Origin: an uncultured Chloroflexia bacterium
GTDB lineage: Bacteria > Chloroflexota > Limnocylindria > Limnocylindrales > CSP1-4
Reading direction: 5' to 3'
Assembly: GCA_963835845.1 (NCBI GenBank)
Contig: CAWIGT010000001.1
Span: 324,102-388,101, forward strand
DNA: 64,000 nt
This document shows, one piece after another, positions 46,202-54,981 of this stretch. The notes beneath the pieces were generated by a model that saw nothing but the letters and a program-made list of their open reading frames with translations, was not told the origin of the DNA and searched no databases. Made by a program: the position numbers and the translations under genes. Every line of letters starts with the position of its first letter. Within the stretch, counting starts at the first letter, position 1.

Positions 46202-46897
46202 TCAGAACAGGTTGTCGTCCGACTTCGGCGGCTCGACCAGGCGGTGACGGAGGGCGAACGCCACGGCTTCGAGCTTGGAGTGGACCCGCAGCTTGCCCAT
46301 GATGTTCTGGACGTGCGTTCGCAGCGTGTTCGGGGCGATGTATAGCCGCTCGCAGATCTCTGGCGTCGCCAGCCCCTCAGTGAGGGCCTTGAGCACTTCC
46401 AGCTCACGGGGAGTGAGCGGTTCGATCTGGCGGCGCTCGGTTCCGCGCTCTCGGGCCGCCGCCACGCGCTGCGCGATGCCCACGATCACCGAGCGCGGCA
46501 GGAGGGTCTCGCCGGCATAGGCGGCGCGCACGGCGTTGACGACCTCGTCGATGGCCCGGTCCTTGGTCAGATAGCCGTCGGCTCCCGCCTGGATCGACTC
46601 GAGAACGGTCTCGTCGTCGGTGAGGGCAGTGAGCATCACGACACGAGCCGCGGGCCAGCGGGCTTTGATGGCGCGCGTGGCTTCGGCGCCGGTGCCGTCC
46701 GGGAGGCGGTAGTCCATGAGAACGACGTCGAGCCGTTCCCTGGCCATGGCTTTGGCCTCGGCTACGCTGCCGGCCACTCCCGCGACGATGATGTCCGGCT
46801 CGCGGCCGAGCATCTGGGACAGAGCTCCGGTAAGGAGCTGGTGGTCGTCCACGAGGAGGACTCGGATCGGCCGGGCTTCACCGTACGCTTCTGTCAT
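46202..46897 (-). CDS. NarL/FixJ-family response regulator (LuxR HTH)
   Basis: VLLVDDH, VLMDY, YLTK, LTPRELEVL...THVQNIMGKL. Confidence 0.95.
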   Translation of the reverse strand: MTEAYGEARPIRVLLVDDHQLLTGALSQMLGREPDIIVAGVAGSVAEAKAMARERLDVVLMDYRLPDGTGAEATRAIKARWPAARVVMLTALTDDETVLESIQAGADGYLTKDRAIDEVVNAVRAAYAGETLLPRSVIVGIAQRVAAARERGTERRQIEPLTPRELEVLKALTEGLATPEICERLYIAPNTLRTHVQNIMGKLRVHSKLEAVAFALRHRLVEPPKSDDNLF

Positions 46898-47123
46898 CTC
46901 TTCTTGGTCGCCCTCTTCACTGCGCGCCGGCACATGGGCAAACTTTCGCCTTCAGCCGAAGCGCATCATAGCCGGACTTCCAAAGATCGCACACTAATCC
47001 GTTCGTGTGTGTAACAGTGCGACTCAGGTGCCCCGACCGGGCCGGACCGGATGGCGAGCCGGACTGGGACCCGGCATCGCCGCTGCGAGCGCAGCCGCTT
47101 CTGCCGCTGTCCATAATGGCGTC

Positions 47124-48011
47124 GTGCGGATCTCCCTCATCGGCTTCGGCTTGATCGGCGGCTCGATTGCGCGTGCCCTGCACGAGCGAGCCGAGCCGGG
47201 CCGCTGGCACGTGACCGCCTGGAGCCGCACACCCGCGCCGGTGCGCAGAGCGCTCGACGATGGTGCCGTCCACGTGGCCGCGGCCACGCTCGAGGATGCG
47301 CTGCCGGGCGCCGACATCGTCGTTCTGGCGGCTCCGCCGCTGACGTGCCTCGATCTCGTAGACCGGATCGGCGGGCCGTTGCGGATTCTCTTGTCGGAGG
47401 ACTGCACGGTCACAGACGTCGCCAGTGCCAAAACCCGTATCGTCGAGCGGGCGGACGCGGTGAAGCTGGCCTTCGTCGGCGGTCACCCCATGGCCGGCCG
47501 CGAGCTGTCCGGTTACGACGCCTCACTGCCGGACCTGTTCGTGGACCGGCCGTGGGTCACGGTGCCCGGCCGTTTCGCCAGGCTTCGCGACGGCGAACGG
47601 GTCGGCGAACTGATAGAAGCATGCGGGGCCATCCAGATGCCGATGGCTGCGCAGGCGCACGACGCCGCGGTCGCGGCCATCAGCCACATGCCACTCGTGG
47701 TTTCGGCGGCGATGGTCGAGGCCGTCGCGGGCGGCCCAGGCGAACCGGAGCGGCAAGATTGGGGGAACGCCGAAGCTCTCGCGGCCACGGGCTGGGCAGG
47801 AATGACGCGCCTGGCCAGGGGCGAGCCGGGCATGGGCACCGGCATCGCCGCCACCAATTCGGCGGCTCTCGCGGCTCGGGTACGAGACGTCCGGGCGGTG
47901 CTCGACTCGTGGCTGGCCGAGCTCGAGCGTGAAGGCGGGCCGGATGCCGAAGAATTGCTGGCCCGCTTCACCTCGGCGCGACGACGGCTGAGGGAGCCAG
48001 ATCGGCCATGA
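47124..48011 (+). CDS. tyrA: Prephenate/arogenate dehydrogenase
   Basis: IGFGLIGGS, TDVASAK, GGHPMAG, HD...ISHMP, TRLA. Confidence 0.9.
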   Translation: MRISLIGFGLIGGSIARALHERAEPGRWHVTAWSRTPAPVRRALDDGAVHVAAATLEDALPGADIVVLAAPPLTCLDLVDRIGGPLRILLSEDCTVTDVASAKTRIVERADAVKLAFVGGHPMAGRELSGYDASLPDLFVDRPWVTVPGRFARLRDGERVGELIEACGAIQMPMAAQAHDAAVAAISHMPLVVSAAMVEAVAGGPGEPERQDWGNAEALAATGWAGMTRLARGEPGMGTGIAATNSAALAARVRDVRAVLDSWLAELEREGGPDAEELLARFTSARRRLREPDRP

Positions 48012-48655
48012 CCGACGGCGTGGCCGAGTTCGTCTACGCGGTTCCGCGAGAAACCCTGTTCGGCGACGTGGCTCCGTGGCTCGGCGTCCTGCCCGGGGAC
48101 GTCGACGGCGTGGACGGAGTCCTGGAGCGAGCCCGCGAACTGGGCGGCTTCGTTGCCCGGCCGGCGGCCGAGACGGACCGATCGCTGAAACAAATCATCC
48201 CGTACCTGGTCCTGCGCGACGGCGATCGAATCTTCCTGATGAAACGGACGCGGGCCGGAGGAGACGCTCGACTCCACGACCTCTATTCGATCGGTGTGGG
48301 CGGCCACCTGAACCCCGGCGACGGCTGGCTTACCGGCGGGCTGGCGCGCGAGTGGCGCGAGGAACTCGAGGCCGACTTCGTGCCGGACTTCGAGTTCTTC
48401 GGACTGCTCAACGACGACACCGTGGACGTCGGCGTTCACCACATGGGCGTCGTCTATCTTGCCGACGCCGCCGGCCGCGCGGTGTCAATTCGCGAAACGG
48501 AGAAGCTCGGCGGTTCGTTCGAGACGATGTCGGTCGTGCGGGCCGCGTACGACAGCATGGAGACGTGGAGCCAGCTCGTGCTCGACGCCATCGTCGACTC
48601 GGACCTCCACGGAACGGCGCCGGCTCACGCCGCGGATCGGGCGATTTCCGAATGA
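48008..48655 (+). CDS. NUDIX-family phosphoesterase
   Basis: KQIIPY, RLHDLYSIGVGGH, REWREE, VGVHHMG. Confidence 0.85.
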   Translation: MTDGVAEFVYAVPRETLFGDVAPWLGVLPGDVDGVDGVLERARELGGFVARPAAETDRSLKQIIPYLVLRDGDRIFLMKRTRAGGDARLHDLYSIGVGGHLNPGDGWLTGGLAREWREELEADFVPDFEFFGLLNDDTVDVGVHHMGVVYLADAAGRAVSIRETEKLGGSFETMSVVRAAYDSMETWSQLVLDAIVDSDLHGTAPAHAADRAISE

Positions 48656-49290
48656 ACCGATTGCCCGGGCTCCGAGTCCCACGCATGAGCGACCCACTCC
48701 AGTCGTCCAAAGAGCGTGGCATGTTCGCAGACGAAGCCTATCTCGGCGCCGAACCCGTTCGGTCGCCAATGCATACCTCGATGGTTCGCGACCGGGCCAT
48801 CGATACCGTTTTCGCCACCGCCCTCGAGGCCGAACTGGCGAAGGGCTACCGCCTGGCCGGCTACCTGCTGGCCGACGCCGCGGAAGCCCAGGACGCCGTG
48901 CAGGAAGCCTCGGTCCGAGCCTGGCGGGCCTGGCCGAAGCTCCGCGAGCGCGACCGCTTCCACTCCTGGTTCAGCCAGATCCTGGTCAACGTCTGCCGTA
49001 CCAGGCTTCACCAGAGAAGCAGGCGGCGAACGGTCGACGTGGATGACGTGGATCTCGAAAGCGGAGACCCGTTCCGGGCCTCACTGGCGCGCGACGCCAT
49101 CGGCCGGGCTCTGTCGAGTCTGAGCCAGGAGCTGCGCATGGTCGTCGTGCTTCGCTACTGGGGGGAGTTGTCGCTGGCCGAAATCGCGGACCGTCTGCAC
49201 ATTCCTGTAGGAACCGTCAAGTCGCGGCACCACGCAGCCCTGCAGGTTTTGCGCCGCCGGATAGAGCCTGTACAAGGGGGCTCGAGATGA
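48652..49290 (+). CDS. ECF RNA polymerase sigma factor (start may be 48721 or later)
   Basis: Sigma2 region AQDAVQEA...FHSWFSQILVN; sigma4 region LSLAEIADRLHIPVGTVKSR. Confidence 0.9.
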   Translation: MNRLPGLRVPRMSDPLQSSKERGMFADEAYLGAEPVRSPMHTSMVRDRAIDTVFATALEAELAKGYRLAGYLLADAAEAQDAVQEASVRAWRAWPKLRERDRFHSWFSQILVNVCRTRLHQRSRRRTVDVDDVDLESGDPFRASLARDAIGRALSSLSQELRMVVVLRYWGELSLAEIADRLHIPVGTVKSRHHAALQVLRRRIEPVQGGSR

Positions 49291-50889
49291 ACGACTCCGA
49301 GCTCGACGGCCTGGACGTTGAGATGGACGCGCGTCTGGCGGCCTACGCAAGCGGCTCCCGCGAACCCGCGCTGCCCGATGCGGTCGCGGACCTGCCCTGG
49401 AAGGTCCAGCTCGATCGCCCTCGTCCCGGTCGGCTGAGTGGGTTGCTGGCCGTGCCCAGGACTTCGCTGGGCCTCCGCCAGGTCGCCCTGTCGTTCGCCC
49501 GGCTCGGGCTGACGCTGGCGGTAGCCGGGGCGTTCCTTCTATTGGTCAACACCCGCGTCGGCGGCAGCGCCGCTGATCTGATCCAGCCGGTGCCGTCGGC
49601 CCGGCCCGCAGGCTTGCCCGCCACCGCGGCCAATAGCCCCGAGGTAGTCGTCGTTCCAACGAGCGGCGTGGTGGACGACGTCATGGCGGATCACGTCGCC
49701 GGGGCGGTCCACCGGGCGGAATCCGACGGTGCCGCCGCTGTCGTCATCGAGCTCGACACCCTCGGCGGCAGCCTTGAGGCAATGCAGCGCATCACGGAGT
49801 CCCTGAACGCAGAATCTGCCGACCATCGTTTGGGTCGCGCCGTCGGGCGGGTCGGCGGCAAGCGCCGGGACGTTCATCACCATGTCGGCCAACCTCGCGT
49901 ACATGGCCCCCAGCACGACCATCGGGGCCGCGTCGCCAGTGGCCGCCGGCGGGCAGGACATCGCCCAGGCGATCGGCCAGACCGAGGCCGACAAGACCAT
50001 GCAGTACGCGATCGCCACGATTTCGGGCTTTGCGGAGCGGAATCATCCCGAGGCCGTCGCCTGGGCCGTCTCGACGGTCGAGAAGGCCCAGGCATACACC
50101 GCTCAGCAGGCCCTGGCCGCCCATGCGATCAACGGCGTTGCCGGCAGCCTCGACGACGTCCTGAACCAGGCAGATGGCCTGACGGTGTCGACCGGTCACG
50201 GTCAGGTCGTGCTGCACACCAAGGGCGCGTCGATCGTCACGATCAATGAGGACCTGGTGCAGTCTTTTCTGCATGAGCTCGACGATCCGAACATCGCCTT
50301 CATCCTTCTCGTGCTGGGCGTCCTGTGCATCGGCGTGGAGTTCTTCCACCCGACCCTGTTGATGGGTCTGGTTGGTGCCCTCCTGCTGGCCCTGTCCTTC
50401 TACGGATCGGGCAGCCTGCCGTTGAACGTGCTCGGGGTCGTCCTGGTGGTCCTGGGTATAGGGATGATCGTCCTGGAACCGAATCTGCCCAGCCACGGCG
50501 TGCTCGTCATCGGCGGCATAGCTGTCTTCGTGGTCGGGGCAGTGGCTTTCTATGGGTCACCCGGCCCCTATCTCCAGCCGGCGTCCGTGGCCTGGCCGAT
50601 CATCGGCGTGATGGCCGCGGCGGCGGCGGCATACGGGCTGCTGATCGTGAGCACACTCTTGCGGCTGCGCAGGCAGCCTCTGCCGGTCGGACTGGGTCTG
50701 GTGGGGACGCAGCCGGTGATCGGCCTGGTCGGCGAAGTCCAGGCGGACCTGTCGCCGACGGGAACAATCTACGTGGGCCGCGAATCCTGGACGGCACGGG
50801 CTCGCGACGGCGGTACGCTGAGTCGCGGCGCCAAGGTCCGAGTCGTCAAGCAGGAGGGTCTGATATTGATCGTGGAGCGGGTCGACTGA
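49287..50889 (+). CDS. nfeD: NfeD1b-type membrane serine protease with anti-sigma-like N-terminal extension (frameshift at about 49812)
   Basis: ELDTLGG, AASAGTFI, MAPSTTIGAASPV, DKT; TM bundle; C-terminal OB fold; extra N-terminal region of about 115 aa with a TM helix. Confidence 0.88.
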
Positions 50890-50933
50890 CCTGATCTGGC
50901 ATTCGCCCGCTTTTGGGCAGTTGGAGGAACGGG

Positions 50934-51827
50934 ATGGAAGCCGGAACGGTAACGTTCATAGCCGTAATCGTCGTGGCGGTGATCTTGGTCTTCTTCATCG
51001 CCGTCTCGGTCAGGATCGTGCCGCAGTGGGCCAAGCTCGTTGTCTATCGCTGGGGTCAGGCCGGTCCGCAGCTGGTTCGCAACCCCGGTCTGCGGTTCCT
51101 GATCCCGTTCGTCGACAAGGGCGTCATGGTGGACCTGCGTGAGCAGTTCATCGAAGTTCCGCGCCAGACCGCGATCACCAAGGACAACGCTCCGCTTGGA
51201 GTGGACTTCCTGATCTACTGGAAGATCGTGGATCCGCTTATGAGCCAGATCAACGTGGCGAATTTCGCGGGCGCGTTGCAGGGTGTGGCGGCCACTTCGC
51301 TACGGTCCGTGATCGGCGACATTCCGCTCGACGACGTCCTGTCGCAGCGTGAAAAGATCAACGAGACGTTGCGGCTCAAGCTGGACGAGGTCACCGAGCG
51401 CTGGGGCGGCAAAGTCACGACCGTCGAGATTCGCGAGATCCTGCCCCCGCCGGCCGTTCAAGAGGCGATGAACCGGCAGCTCTCGGCCGAGCGAACGCGC
51501 CGTGCCGTGATCACCGAGTCGGAGGGTACCCGGCAGGCCACGATCAACGTAGCCGAGGGTGACAAGCAGTCGGCGATCTTGCGGGCAGAGGGCGATCGCC
51601 AGGCGGCGATTTTGCGAGCCCAAGGTTTCAGCAACGCGCTGCAAACGATCTTCGAGGCGGCCAGGGGCATCGACCAGAAGACGATGGTGCTGCAGTATCT
51701 CGACGCCCTCAAGGCGCTGGGCAACGGTCCGGCCACCAAGTTCATCATTCCGATGGAGTTCACCCAGCTGGTCGGGCCTCTGGGGGCCATGGCCAAGAGC
51801 GCGATGGGGAATCCGACGGACAAGTAG
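50934..51827 (+). CDS. SPFH/stomatin (band 7) family protein
   Basis: N-terminal TM, PGLRFLIPFVD, ITKDN, LRSVIG, AERTRRA, AEG repeats. Confidence 0.93.
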   Translation: MEAGTVTFIAVIVVAVILVFFIAVSVRIVPQWAKLVVYRWGQAGPQLVRNPGLRFLIPFVDKGVMVDLREQFIEVPRQTAITKDNAPLGVDFLIYWKIVDPLMSQINVANFAGALQGVAATSLRSVIGDIPLDDVLSQREKINETLRLKLDEVTERWGGKVTTVEIREILPPPAVQEAMNRQLSAERTRRAVITESEGTRQATINVAEGDKQSAILRAEGDRQAAILRAQGFSNALQTIFEAARGIDQKTMVLQYLDALKALGNGPATKFIIPMEFTQLVGPLGAMAKSAMGNPTDK

Positions 51828-51946
51828 CAGGCCCGGCAGGTAGGTACGCAGGTCGAGCTGCTCGACGCGCAGCCGGCCAGTGGGCCGCATCCGGCGATTG
51901 GAGAGACGCAGACCTGCGGCCGATGCCTGTAAAGAGACGGCCTGTC

Positions 51947-51952
51947 TATAAT
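51947..51952 (+). promoter_or_regulatory. -10 element TATAAT upstream of the second cpaE-like gene
   Basis: Consensus hexamer in a GC-rich intergenic region about 100 nt upstream of the ATG. Confidence 0.55.
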
Positions 51953-52051
51953 CTGGCGGTTCGTCCCGACACGTCCGTGGTCCAGATACGGGCGGCTGTT
52001 GCCGTCTGCGCGCCGTGGAGCGGTGGGGTTCCGCGTTAGTCAGGTGTAGGT

Positions 52052-53269
52052 ATGGCCGTCAGGATCCTCGTCGTCGATGCCGACCCGACAGTCCAGCGAG
52101 CGCTGGGGCACGCCCTTTCGCAGGCGGGCTATGAGGTCATCGCTTCGGGCGAGGGCCCGGAAGCACTGCGCATCGTCCACTCGGACAAGCCCGCGCTCGT
52201 GCTGATCGCCGCAAACCTGCCCGGCCTCGACGGATTCACCTTCGTGACGCGGCTGCGCATGGAAGACGGGCCCTCGACTCACACGCCGGTGATCCTGCTT
52301 CTCCCGGAGAACGAGGCCGAAGCCAGGGGCAAGGCGCTGCGTTCGGGTGCGGACGACTACCTCATCAAGCCGTTCCACCCCGCCGAGCTGATGGCGCGCA
52401 TGCGCAGCCTGCTGGCCCGCTACAAGCCGGACGAGCAGTTCACACCGCCGACCCGAAGCGCGCATGTCATCCCCGCCGCAATGGCGGCGCCGAAGAAGCG
52501 CGAGCCCGCCAGGGTTGTGCTCTTCTATGGAGCCAAAGGCGGCGTGGGTACGACGACCATCGCCATCAATTCGGCGATCGCGCTTCACAAAGAACTGGGC
52601 CGGAAGGTCTGCCTGATCGACGCCAATCTGCAGTTCGGCGATCACCGCGTGTTCCTGGACCTGGGATTGGACCGCATGAGCATCGTGGACCTCGCCCAGT
52701 CGCAAGCGTTCGACCTGGATCTGATCAATCAGGTCCTGGTCAAGCACGAATCCGGCATCGAGTTGCTGCTTGCGCCGCCGTCTCCGGAGACGGCCGAACT
52801 CGTGACCCACGACCACCTGCCAAATATCATCGGCATGATGGCCGGCGAGTTCGACTACATTCTGGTGGACATCGACAAGCGGCTCGATGAAGTCAACCTG
52901 CGGATCATGGACGTCGCCGACACGATCTACGTCGTCATGACGGCCGACCTACCCTGTCTCAAGAACGTTCGCCTGGTGCTGGAAACAATCGGCCACCTTG
53001 GTTATGCCGACGACAAGGTCAAGCTGATCCTGAATCGATCGAACGCATTCACTGGCATAAACGTCAAGAACGCGGAGAGCGCCCTGAAGCGCCACATCGA
53101 CTTCCAGATCATCAATGAATACCGTTCCGCGATCGGCGCGTTGAACAGCGGGGCGCCGTTCATGTACACGAAGGCAGACTCGGTGCTGGGCAAGAACGTG
53201 CTGGATTTCGTCAAGGCGATGGAAAAGGACATGACTGAGCATGCCGGTGTGAGTCGCGCCGCTCGCTAG
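52052..53269 (+). CDS. cpaE: Pseudo-receiver + CpaE-like ATPase
   Basis: Receiver fold lacking the phospho-Asp; GAKGGVGTTT, DANLQFGD, LLLAPP, LILNR. Confidence 0.85.
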   Translation: MAVRILVVDADPTVQRALGHALSQAGYEVIASGEGPEALRIVHSDKPALVLIAANLPGLDGFTFVTRLRMEDGPSTHTPVILLLPENEAEARGKALRSGADDYLIKPFHPAELMARMRSLLARYKPDEQFTPPTRSAHVIPAAMAAPKKREPARVVLFYGAKGGVGTTTIAINSAIALHKELGRKVCLIDANLQFGDHRVFLDLGLDRMSIVDLAQSQAFDLDLINQVLVKHESGIELLLAPPSPETAELVTHDHLPNIIGMMAGEFDYILVDIDKRLDEVNLRIMDVADTIYVVMTADLPCLKNVRLVLETIGHLGYADDKVKLILNRSNAFTGINVKNAESALKRHIDFQIINEYRSAIGALNSGAPFMYTKADSVLGKNVLDFVKAMEKDMTEHAGVSRAAR

Positions 53270-53403: not shown

Positions 53404-54981
53404 GTGCTTGCCTCTCTTCTCTCGGCGACTCTCAGCGGATTGGACGGACACTCTATCCGCGTCGAGGTGGACGTTGCTCCGGGCCTTCCCGGCTTCACGA
53501 TCGTGGGCCTGGCAGACACCGCTCTCCAGGAAGCCAGGGAGCGTGTCCGGGGAGCGATTCGAAATAGCGGTTACGAGTACCCGCCCCGGCGGATCACCGT
53601 CAACCTGGCGCCTGCCGAGTTGCGCAAGAGCGGCGCGTCGCTGGACCTCGCCATCGCACTGGGGATCCTGGTCGGCTCCGAGCAAGTGACGGCGAACGGT
53701 CGCTGGGCCGTCCTGGGTGAGCTCTCCCTCGGCGGCGAGCTCCGGTCGATGCCGGGCCTGCTGCCCATGGTGCTTGCACTGGCACGCCGCAGGGTGACCC
53801 GAGTGGTGGTTCCACTCGACGGATTGGCGGAAGCGAATCTGGCGGGTGGCGTCGACGTCGTAGCCGCGCGCACCCTCGCCGAGGCGGCCGCGCTGCTACG
53901 GCAGGACCGCCGGGGGCGGGAGCGCAGCAGCCCGCCGCGGATAGAACTCGCGGCCGACGCCGCGGACGAAATCCGTCGCGATCAAGCCGGTGCGCCGAAT
54001 GGCCTTGGGGCGGATCAGTGGCCGGATCTGGATGAGGTTCGGGGCCAACTGGAGGCCCGGCGCGGTCTGGAACTGGCCCTGGCGGGAGGCCACTGCATGG
54101 TCATGGTGGGGCCGCCCGGATCCGGCAAGACACTCCTGGCCAGAACGGTGCCCGGGCTGCTGCCGCCCCTCGACGACGACGAAGCCAGGGTTGCAACGGT
54201 CATCGCGTCGGTCTCCGGCATGGGGCCGGTCACGGGTCTGGTCCGCACGCGGCCCTTTCGTTCTCCACATCACACAATCTCGTACGCGGCCATGGTGGGT
54301 GGCGGTCCGCACCTCTCGCCGGGAGAAGTTTCGCTTGCCCACAATGGCGTCTTGTTCCTGGACGAGTTGCCCGAGTTCGATCGAACGACCCTCGAGGCGC
54401 TGCGCCAACCTCTCGAGGATGGCCAGGTGGCGATTTCGAGGGTTGGCCGGGCTGCCGTCTTTCCGTCGCGATTCCAGTTGATCGCGGCGATGAACCCTTG
54501 CCCGTGCGGTCAGGCTGGCGAAGGGGACGGCCGCTGCCGCTGCCGTCCGGGCATCGTGGACCGGTATGCCGGCCGCATATCCGGGCCGTTGAGAGATCGG
54601 ATAGATCTATGGGTCCACATGCCGCGCGTCGAGCCGAACGACTACGTCAGGGCGGCTGCCCAGGAAGGCTCGGCTGAGGTCGCGGCGCGAATAGCGGAGG
54701 CGCGGCATCGGCAGATGGTGCGTGACTCGCGGCCCAACTCGCGGCTCACCGGTCGAGCCTTGAGGGCTGCGTGTGCACTTGGCCCGATCGAGCAGGCCCA
54801 TGCCGTCAGACTGGCCGAGCTCGACGGTTGGAGCGCCCGTGGCATCGAAAGGCTGCTCCGCGTGTCGCGGACCGCGGCGGACCTGGCCGGCGCAGACCGC
54901 GTCGAAGGATCGCACCTGGACGAGGCCGCGCGCTTCCGATCCCCGTCGTTCCGGCGTTTCGGCTACGAGGCGGTGAGCTAG
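53404..54981 (+). CDS. comM: YifB/ComM Mg-chelatase-like AAA+ ATPase
   Basis: VEVDV...GLP, ITVNLAPA, GPPGSGKT, RPFRSPHH, LDELPEF, AMNPCPCG, DRID. Confidence 0.93.
   Translation: MLASLLSATLSGLDGHSIRVEVDVAPGLPGFTIVGLADTALQEARERVRGAIRNSGYEYPPRRITVNLAPAELRKSGASLDLAIALGILVGSEQVTANGRWAVLGELSLGGELRSMPGLLPMVLALARRRVTRVVVPLDGLAEANLAGGVDVVAARTLAEAAALLRQDRRGRERSSPPRIELAADAADEIRRDQAGAPNGLGADQWPDLDEVRGQLEARRGLELALAGGHCMVMVGPPGSGKTLLARTVPGLLPPLDDDEARVATVIASVSGMGPVTGLVRTRPFRSPHHTISYAAMVGGGPHLSPGEVSLAHNGVLFLDELPEFDRTTLEALRQPLEDGQVAISRVGRAAVFPSRFQLIAAMNPCPCGQAGEGDGRCRCRPGIVDRYAGRISGPLRDRIDLWVHMPRVEPNDYVRAAAQEGSAEVAARIAEARHRQMVRDSRPNSRLTGRALRAACALGPIEQAHAVRLAELDGWSARGIERLLRVSRTAADLAGADRVEGSHLDEAARFRSPSFRRFGYEAVS

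Follow-up and report, generated by a model that had tools for sequence, protein, structure and literature searches.

Pairs of extracytoplasmic function (ECF) sigma factors and anti-sigma factors are modular switches, the sensor parts of which define what the cell listens to. The roles of NfeD proteases and bacterial stomatins are poorly understood. The closest described link between the two is that of Bacillus subtilis, where the ECF factor sigma-W controls the NfeD/flotillin operons (floA, floT) in membrane stress; sigma-W, its anti-sigma factor RsiW and the proteases that destroy RsiW are separate genes located elsewhere on the chromosome. A published account places FloA and FloT under the regulation of ECF sigma-W (PMC8581546), and because of this control an ECF sigma link to NfeD and SPFH genes is not new in itself. 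Here, we analyze a stretch of 64,000 nucleotides (hereafter the window) from an uncultured Chloroflexia bacterium (assembly GCA_963835845.1, contig CAWIGT010000001.1, positions 324,102 to 388,101 of the forward strand). Unlike in B. subtilis, an ECF sigma gene lies inside the nfeD-SPFH operon of the window, and the protein that starts at position 49287, directly after the sigma gene, is probably a fusion of an anti-sigma-like part with an NfeD1b protease. We propose, with a probability of roughly 65%, that the cytoplasmic motif of this NfeD1b protein tethers the sigma factor at the membrane, and that loss of the tether frees sigma to re-express the operon.

The NfeD protein PH1510 of Pyrococcus horikoshii (1510-N protease/STOPP), which is paired with the stomatin PH1511, starts with a signal peptide. 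Past its extension, the window protein has the same layout, namely a ClpP-like Ser-Lys protease, a bundle of transmembrane (TM) helices, an OB fold and an SPFH neighbor. Its N-terminus, however, is not a signal peptide alone: about 118 extra residues precede the protease domain, beginning with a cytoplasmic motif that is conserved and continuing through a TM helix into a Pro-rich linker. Neither PH1510 nor the NfeD proteins of sister genera have such a cytoplasmic module or an adjoining sigma gene. The initial annotation had described a cytoplasmic-looking segment of roughly 70 residues, a TM helix and a Pro-rich linker in frame with NfeD1b, and these parts were found, the hydrophilic start measuring about 63 residues and the NfeD1b_N profile beginning at residue 120.

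Single-pass anti-sigma factors of the RseA, RsiW and RsdA type, which regulated intramembrane proteolysis releases, resemble the fusion in gene position 3' of sigma, in its likely N-in topology with a cytoplasmic sigma-binding part and in the predicted clamp of sigma domains 2 and 4. The fusion differs from them in that its extracytoplasmic part is a protease, after which the chain crosses the membrane in five more TM helices and ends in a cytoplasmic OB fold. Its putative sigma-binding segment is very short (about 35 residues, with a helix at 11-24 and a helical turn at 32-34 in the model), a likeness to the short class II domains of CnrY and NepR that we presume. In the literature searched, we found no anti-sigma-like module fused to NfeD and no ECF gene within an nfeD-SPFH operon, in line with the initial annotation, which knew of no described ECF group with this architecture; the supplements of ECF classifications could list such a group, and the published work found on Limnocylindria sigma factors gives their numbers only. 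An anti-sigma-like tail on NfeD, wiring gene control to a stomatin-associated protease, is thus apparently undescribed, and what is new here is probably an ECF/anti-sigma pair with a new outer domain, NfeD1b.

The window holds a head-to-tail run of five genes on the + strand, from prephenate dehydrogenase through the SPFH gene, and every sequence feature annotated initially (sigma gene, overlap, extension, NfeD1b parts, frameshift and SPFH gene) is present, with three coordinates refined (Table 1). The sigma factor has the domain content of the ECF factors (group 4), matching Sigma70_r2 at 51.6 bits and r4 at 58.4 bits with no r3 match, and it exceeds the TIGR02937 cut-off (77.4 versus 42.9 bits); its best subfamily, TIGR02983 (SigE-fam_strep), stays below cut-off (102 versus 141.55 bits). 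As annotated, the sigma stop codon TGA (49288-49290) overlaps the start codon of the next gene in an ATGA at 49287. The order sigma, extended nfeD and SPFH is retained in 20 loci including the window's own, the sigma gene being cut by a contig end in two of them, and an SPFH gene lies downstream of nfeD in all 20. Across these loci, the sigma stop and the nfeD start share an ATGA or GTGA in 18 and abut (TGATG) in one; the remaining assembly has a frame break immediately behind the overlap. The extended nfeD is therefore co-encoded with sigma in the way of the anti-sigma class, next to it and with a 4-nt overlap in 18/20 loci. A GGGGG-rich sequence lies 6-10 nt upstream of the nfeD start.

The extension is conserved at the protein level. 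In an alignment of 19 sequences, an invariant motif is followed by a variable spacer and then by the conserved TM helix, with D10, M13, L17, A21, L29, P30, L36, W38, V40 and Q41 invariant among residues 10-41. With the first 177 residues as query, all 24 same-genus genomes matched from query residue 1-12 onward, and none of 16 genomes of a neighboring family, which are small genomes, gave a match. The objection that the N-terminus is a non-conserved extension fails on this conservation. The ratio of nonsynonymous to synonymous substitution rates (dN/dS), calculated by the pairwise Nei-Gojobori method over 153 pairs and rough in all regions with synonymous sites close to saturation, was 0.31 for the N-terminal motif, 0.69 for the spacer, 0.26 for the TM helix, 0.49 for the linker, 0.17 for the protease domain and 0.28 for the OB fold. 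Judged by its ratio of about 0.31, the N-terminal motif is under purifying selection. A true start further downstream, the other objection raised initially, is contradicted by one orthologous locus (L008), in which the in-frame start codons within the first 80 codons are those at codons 1 and 14; because codons 15-80 hold no in-frame ATG, GTG or TTG, no downstream start could supply the TM helix.

In the window itself, the open reading frame (ORF) from 49287 moves from frame 0 to frame 1 between 49803 and 49819, within the protease domain. Removing one base at 49811 joins both frames and yields an orthologue-like junction, SLNA.N/K.(L/I)PTIVWV. The same base is missing from one contig each of runs X1 (4714 nt, depth 10.5) and X2 (385 nt, depth 4.1), both public soil metagenome runs of one study, and these contigs otherwise differ from the window at 5 positions or fewer in 1603. 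Full-length orthologues from relatives are intact in 18/18 cases (527-538 amino acids). It had been claimed that the single frameshift lies inside the protease domain and does not create the fusion, and this is what we find: the break falls about 175 codons after the start, and the contigs of both runs give one continuous ORF, which also disposes of the objection that reads would show two separate genes. With the intact orthologues and these contigs, the fusion is real and the frame break, on sequence grounds, is not biological. The window genome is 59% complete by marker genes in only 11 contigs, which we take as a sign of indel errors in the assembly; other apparent pseudogenes of this assembly may be indel errors too.

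Because the frame break splits the protease domain, each of its halves stays under the PF25145 cut-off of 40 bits (32.4 and 17.8 bits), and the intact orthologues carry the family annotation. The domain aligns to P. horikoshii 1510-N (2deo) with an E-value of 8.8e-23 for an orthologue and 1.7e-11 for the window's second half. In this alignment, the Ser of AASAG and the Lys of EADK stand opposite two residues that are Ala in PDB 6m4b and 3bpp, structures that we take to be active-site mutants of the Ser-Lys dyad of 1510-N. Both residues are invariant in 20 sequences, two sister-genus proteins included, so that the catalytic Ser and Lys named initially hold up. The ClpP-like domain with its Ser-Lys dyad, the membrane domain, the C-terminal OB fold and the adjoining SPFH gene are those of an NfeD1b protein, the OB fold matching PDB 3wwv ('Stomatin operon partner protein') with an E-value of 1.1e-9. 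From its residues, the protease domain looks active.

An AlphaFold2 model of the L008 orthologue has a mean predicted local distance difference test score (pLDDT) of 64 and a predicted template modeling score (pTM) of 0.46, with high confidence for the protease and OB domains and low confidence for the extension. It places a helix at 11-24, a long helix containing the first TM helix at 55-93, the protease domain at 120-332, the membrane-domain TM helices at 335-354, 359-375, 378-400, 406-423 and 433-463, and the OB barrel at 482-532. Because of these 1+5 TM helices, the N-terminus and the OB fold would lie on one side of the membrane, and the protease domain and linker on the other. By the positive-inside rule, the RLRRQ that follows the last helix, together with the Arg residues preceding the first TM helix, favors the cytoplasm for both ends, and the signal peptide on the ordinary sister-genus NfeD agrees with a protease domain outside. 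We infer that both ends of the fusion are cytoplasmic and that its protease domain faces outward. The SPFH gene that was reported to follow has, as in SPFH/stomatin proteins, a Band 7 domain behind an N-terminal membrane anchor, with one hydrophobic segment at residues 6-44 of the long reading. A GGAGGA Shine-Dalgarno sequence 5 nt before ATG 50934 makes this codon, and not TTG 50913, the most likely SPFH start. Read from there, the protein has a 5-residue acidic N-terminal tail and three basic residues after the TM helix, which suggests, again by the positive-inside rule, a cytoplasmic SPFH domain.

Whether the extension could hold the sigma factor was addressed by complex prediction, using sigma (212 amino acids, 17-row alignment) and extension residues 1-62. 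The pair scored 0.65 (0.64-0.66 in three runs), against 0.01 for the best of three controls; the mark applied to this score is reached by 58/80 solved complexes and by 2/110 mismatched pairs. Between runs, 78% or more of the contacts recur, and the partner pLDDT is 64 or higher. On the sigma side, the predicted interface lies in domain 2 (residues 48-91) and in the linker and domain 4 (residues 140-204); on the extension side it spans residues 8-43 and includes all 10 invariant cytoplasmic residues other than Met1. As a prediction, this model lends support to residues 8-43 being bound between domains 2 and 4 of sigma, and to the pairing of sigma with the N-terminal segment that was put forward initially.

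Related pairs in the same genome have a comparable layout. Following 6 of the 7 closest sigma paralogues of the window genome is a single-pass protein, the N-terminus of which is short and acidic. A TM helix comes next, at about residues 50-85, and a Pro/Ser/Ala linker then leads to a large outer domain. These partners start with an ATGA overlap in four pairs and with an overlapping ATG at -8 and -11 in two. In two of the partners the outer part contains BNR or Sortilin-like repeats; the other four match no Pfam family. Seven further sigma/single-pass pairs occur in sister genera. Taking genome and family together, the partners (238-601 amino acids) share with the fusion their position, start overlap, N-terminal layout and linker, in addition to a weak profile similarity; they differ in their large, non-enzymatic-looking outer domains, none of which is NfeD. 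Profile-profile comparison of the extension with 13 partner N-termini gave P 7.5e-5 over 87 columns; restricted to the cytoplasmic part, P was 9e-4. The observed score is reached by 1/100 column shuffles in both comparisons, and reversed profiles give P of about 0.3. The similarity is weak but consistent. Taken as a group, these paralogue pairs form a lineage-expanded ECF/partner family with an unclassified N-terminal module.

The distribution of the extension was followed in a first sample of 24 same-genus species, a second of 401 genomes of the phylum and 80 NfeD loci from species-representative genomes. In the 401-genome sample, a profile of the extension matched 6/6 genomes of the genus and 0/17 genomes from the other ten genera of the family. 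None of six weak matches elsewhere in the phylum (E 7e-4 to 9e-3) adjoins a sigma gene, and all six were treated as noise. Searched against 1.84 billion representatives, a 100-position extension profile gave 17 matches at E<=0.001 and nothing outside this protein family; seven of the 17 were inspected and are fragments or frame-broken copies of the same fusion protein. A word-based search with residues 1-119 returned seven matches, all of them NfeD proteins of 534-538 amino acids. Among the 80 NfeD loci, 14 have a sigma gene directly upstream and all 14 have the extension, with 333-354 nt from the sigma stop to the start of the protease domain. There is no ECF sigma gene within 2.5 kb upstream on the same strand in 65 loci, and none of these 65 has the extension; one locus is incomplete. 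The search for an ECF gene followed by an N-extended nfeD and an SPFH gene elsewhere, proposed initially, thus ended within the same genus.

The locus has kept its 'before' state in sister genera. The flanking genes are unchanged there, prephenate dehydrogenase, a hypothetical gene, nfeD and SPFH being neighbors with no sigma gene, and in four sister-genus genomes the NfeD match begins only at residue 108-115, the protein starting with an ordinary signal peptide, as the initial annotation had stated to be normal for NfeD. In a fifth sister genome, the query used here matched no NfeD. Sigma orthologues were sought in sister genera as well; the best matches are only 31-44% identical and no donor lineage was identified. 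By these comparisons, the pair of sigma and N-terminal extension is confined to one genus and goes back to a single evolutionary event. The simplest history would be that a sigma gene and the 5' part of its partner gene were inserted once, in frame with the mature part of NfeD.

Directly upstream of sigma lies the candidate promoter GAACC-N15-GAGTC, in which both blocks and the 15-nt spacing are conserved and the spacer sequence varies. It resembles ECF promoters of the GGAAC-N16/17-CGTC kind. The motif was found in 17/18 loci of a first set of sigma loci and, in a second set that overlaps the first in species, in 13/14 by the strict and 14/14 by the relaxed form; in the 65 NfeD loci without sigma, the corresponding counts are 0/65 and 1/65. 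These occurrences suggest that sigma transcribes its own operon, with GAACC-N15-GAGTC as its putative promoter. As a separate observation, the sole other TGAACC-N16-AGTC of the genome with a nearby ATG context like that of the sigma promoter lies at about position 132284 (-) of contig C6, and an ORF for a 475-residue, membrane transporter-like protein starts 75 nt downstream of its GAACC.

We propose the following sequence of events for what would be a four-part operon module of ECF-type promoter, ECF sigma factor, anti-sigma::NfeD1b fusion and SPFH protein. In an ancestor of this Limnocylindrales genus, a sigma gene and the front end of its partner (motif, TM helix and linker) would have landed between the conserved hypothetical gene and nfeD, the inserted front end replacing the cleavable signal peptide of NfeD. 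In the present-day module, the fusion would be made in step with sigma through the ATGA overlap and would insert N-in, leaving residues ~8-43 in the cytoplasm, where they could clamp sigma between domains 2 and 4 and so prevent its access to RNA polymerase. Of the other parts, the ClpP-like domain would face the outside of the membrane, and the OB fold and the SPFH domain the inside. Cleavage or degradation of the fusion would then free sigma, which would transcribe its own operon from GAACC-N15-GAGTC and replenish sigma, NfeD and SPFH together. For the presumed release by proteolysis, the window genome has M50 site-2 protease homologues, which do not discriminate between release routes because they were matched in all 14 control genomes too. 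That the fusion is an anti-sigma factor with its own site-1 protease, its ClpP-like domain cutting the Pro-rich linker of its own or a neighboring subunit when the NfeD-stomatin assembly is disturbed, is topologically possible because linker and protease domain share one side in the 1+5 TM model; we consider this form of release distinctly unlikely.

Several results weigh against a tethering role of the extension. No anti-sigma Pfam family (zf-HC2, RseA_N, RskA, RsdA and others) matches the window copy at E<=10, and among 19 members searched at the same threshold, six unrelated families each match 1/19, as chance single-member matches. The profile similarity to the paralogue partners reaches an hhalign probability of 62% for the full extension and 23% for its cytoplasmic part. 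Neighbors in a language-model atlas include the zf-HC2 and RseA_N anti-sigma clusters at only 0.77-0.83; it takes 0.9 for such a score to count as more than a lead, and one in three shuffled proteins attains 0.8. Apart from helix 11-24, the pLDDT of the extension in the monomer model is below 50. The complex score was obtained with our own alignments, so that its calibration holds only roughly, and part of it may reflect likeness because solved ECF/anti-sigma complexes exist. The co-occurrence counts are not independent because all occurrences descend from one event. Finally, the strict promoter motif has 6 matches genome-wide, one of them 5' of a transporter-like ORF, where we estimate about 7 by chance from composition; at this frequency, no regulon can be read from the motif. 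The anti-sigma assignment made initially is supported in part, by gene position, 4-nt overlap, purifying selection and predicted binding, and finds no counterpart among known anti-sigma families.

How the locus might be read otherwise depends largely on the same observations. Were it an artefact of annotation or assembly (two genes or a pseudogene, or translation that truly begins 3' of the motif), the frame break at ~49811 would be explained, and a genome that is 59% complete in 11 contigs fits the indel errors this implies. Yet the contigs of two runs lack the extra base and 18 orthologues are intact, the break sits some 175 codons into the gene and within the protease domain, codons 15-80 of L008 offer no in-frame start and the motif is under purifying selection; an artefact is extremely improbable and, as far as sequence data can refute it, already refuted. 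A signal-anchor peculiar to the lineage, the conserved tail of which serves otherwise, for example by docking to the SPFH ring or the OB fold, would leave sigma without an anti-sigma factor and controlled in another way, for example transcriptionally. Some ECF groups are indeed known without anti-sigma factors, and the extension belongs to no anti-sigma family, is short and is mostly of low confidence in the monomer model. Such an anchor would not lead one to expect that sigma and extension always occur together (14/14 versus 0/65), that the predicted interface uses exactly the invariant residues (0.65 versus 0.01) and that 6/7 closest sigma paralogues have a coupled single-pass partner in the same slot, and we regard it as unlikely.

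The alternative nearest to the tether model is a dosage coupler instead of a stress sensor, in which the extension binds sigma, sigma reports a shortage of NfeD in a homeostatic NfeD/SPFH feedback and the protease domain has no role in release. The translationally coupled start and the promoter-like motif before the same operon are in its favor, and we obtained no evidence for self-cleavage. The invariant catalytic dyad counts against it, yet is equally expected from the ordinary function of NfeD. We regard such a coupler as a tentative, less likely possibility; it is a sub-case of the tether model that differs in the release step only, and the data fit both equally well.

A tether of this kind would matter in several respects. 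Through a natural fusion, the NfeD-stomatin complex would be coupled to a transcriptional read-out. If self-cleavage were true, an ECF pathway would have that complex as its sensor, and what prokaryotic NfeD proteases do could be read from transcriptional output. The locus is furthermore a clean example of how a new ECF pathway may originate, as sister genera show the prior state. Its reach is that of one event in one uncultured soil Chloroflexota genus, with functional steps that are predicted. Sigma, candidate promoter and fusion could be moved into a laboratory host to see which membrane conditions alter the stability or activity of NfeD.

Table 1. Features of the sigma-nfeD-SPFH locus, its flanking genes and the related pairs (window positions unless a contig is named)
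Feature	Position	Strand	Evidence or remark
ECF-type promoter-like motif GAACC-N15-GAGTC (candidate)	48654..48678	+	GAACC 48654-48658, GAGTC 48674-48678; directly 5' of sigma
ECF sigma factor, 189 aa	48721..49290	+	Pfam Sigma70_r2, r4, r4_2; TIGR02937
Cytoplasmic anti-sigma-like motif, residues 1-48	49287..49430	+	consensus EMDxRLxxFAxSTRxPxLPxxxAxLPWTVQ
TM helix 1, signal-anchor, residues 64-88	49476..49550	+	hydropathy; AlphaFold2 helix 55-93 in orthologue
Pro/Ala/Ser-rich extracytoplasmic linker, residues 89-117	49551..49637	+	sequence; low-confidence coil in AlphaFold2 model
NfeD1b ClpP-like serine protease domain	49638..50286	+	PF25145 on both halves; Ser codon 49861-49863, Lys codon 49993-49995
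One extra base breaking the frame	49811..49811	+	left out in contigs of two other runs
NfeD membrane domain, five TM helices	50287..50670	+	PF24961, 69 bits
NfeD C-terminal OB-fold (partner-binding) domain plus stop codon	50716..50889	+	PF01957, 53.4 bits
SPFH/stomatin-type protein, one N-terminal TM helix	50934..51827	+	PF01145 (Band_7), 126.9 bits
LuxR-type response regulator	46202-46933	-	Response_reg plus GerE; flanking, ordinary-looking
Prephenate dehydrogenase	47007-48011	+	PDH_N and PDH_C matches
215-aa protein	48008-48655	+	without Pfam family
Response-regulator receiver fused to ParA/MinD-type ATPase	52052-53269	+	Response_reg plus AAA_31/CbiA; directly 3' of SPFH gene
Mg-chelatase/ComM-like ATPase	53404-54981	+	flanking, ordinary-looking
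Six paralogous ECF/partner pairs	contigs C1, C9, C11 of the window genome, loci L050-L055		partners 463-601 aa

The start of the sigma gene given in the table departs from that annotated initially, which was 48652. The sigma frame is also open from ATG 48652 and ATG 48685; start codons at these positions are missing in 5/18 and 3/18 loci, respectively, and ATG 48721 is the sole sigma start codon found in all loci, for which reason it is the likely start. The stretch 48685-48720, from the candidate -10 element to ATG 48721 (ATGAGCGACCC.CTCGGGCC.CC...GAGCGTGGC), shows strong nucleotide conservation across loci, independent of the presence of an upstream start codon, and could be a structured 5' leader or encode a conserved N-terminal peptide.

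A scan of 46900-52200 for sigma-70 promoters and terminators gave no promoter and four terminator-like sites where 2.2 were expected, and is uninformative. With regard to the neighboring genes, the 215-residue protein is kept 5' of nfeD in sister genera and 5' of sigma in the same genus, and inspection by eye revealed a Nudix-box-like stretch in it, GGHLNPGD...REWREELE. At the other end of the operon, a gene with a start similar to that of the response-regulator gene also lies 3' of SPFH in one sister-genus locus, L048.

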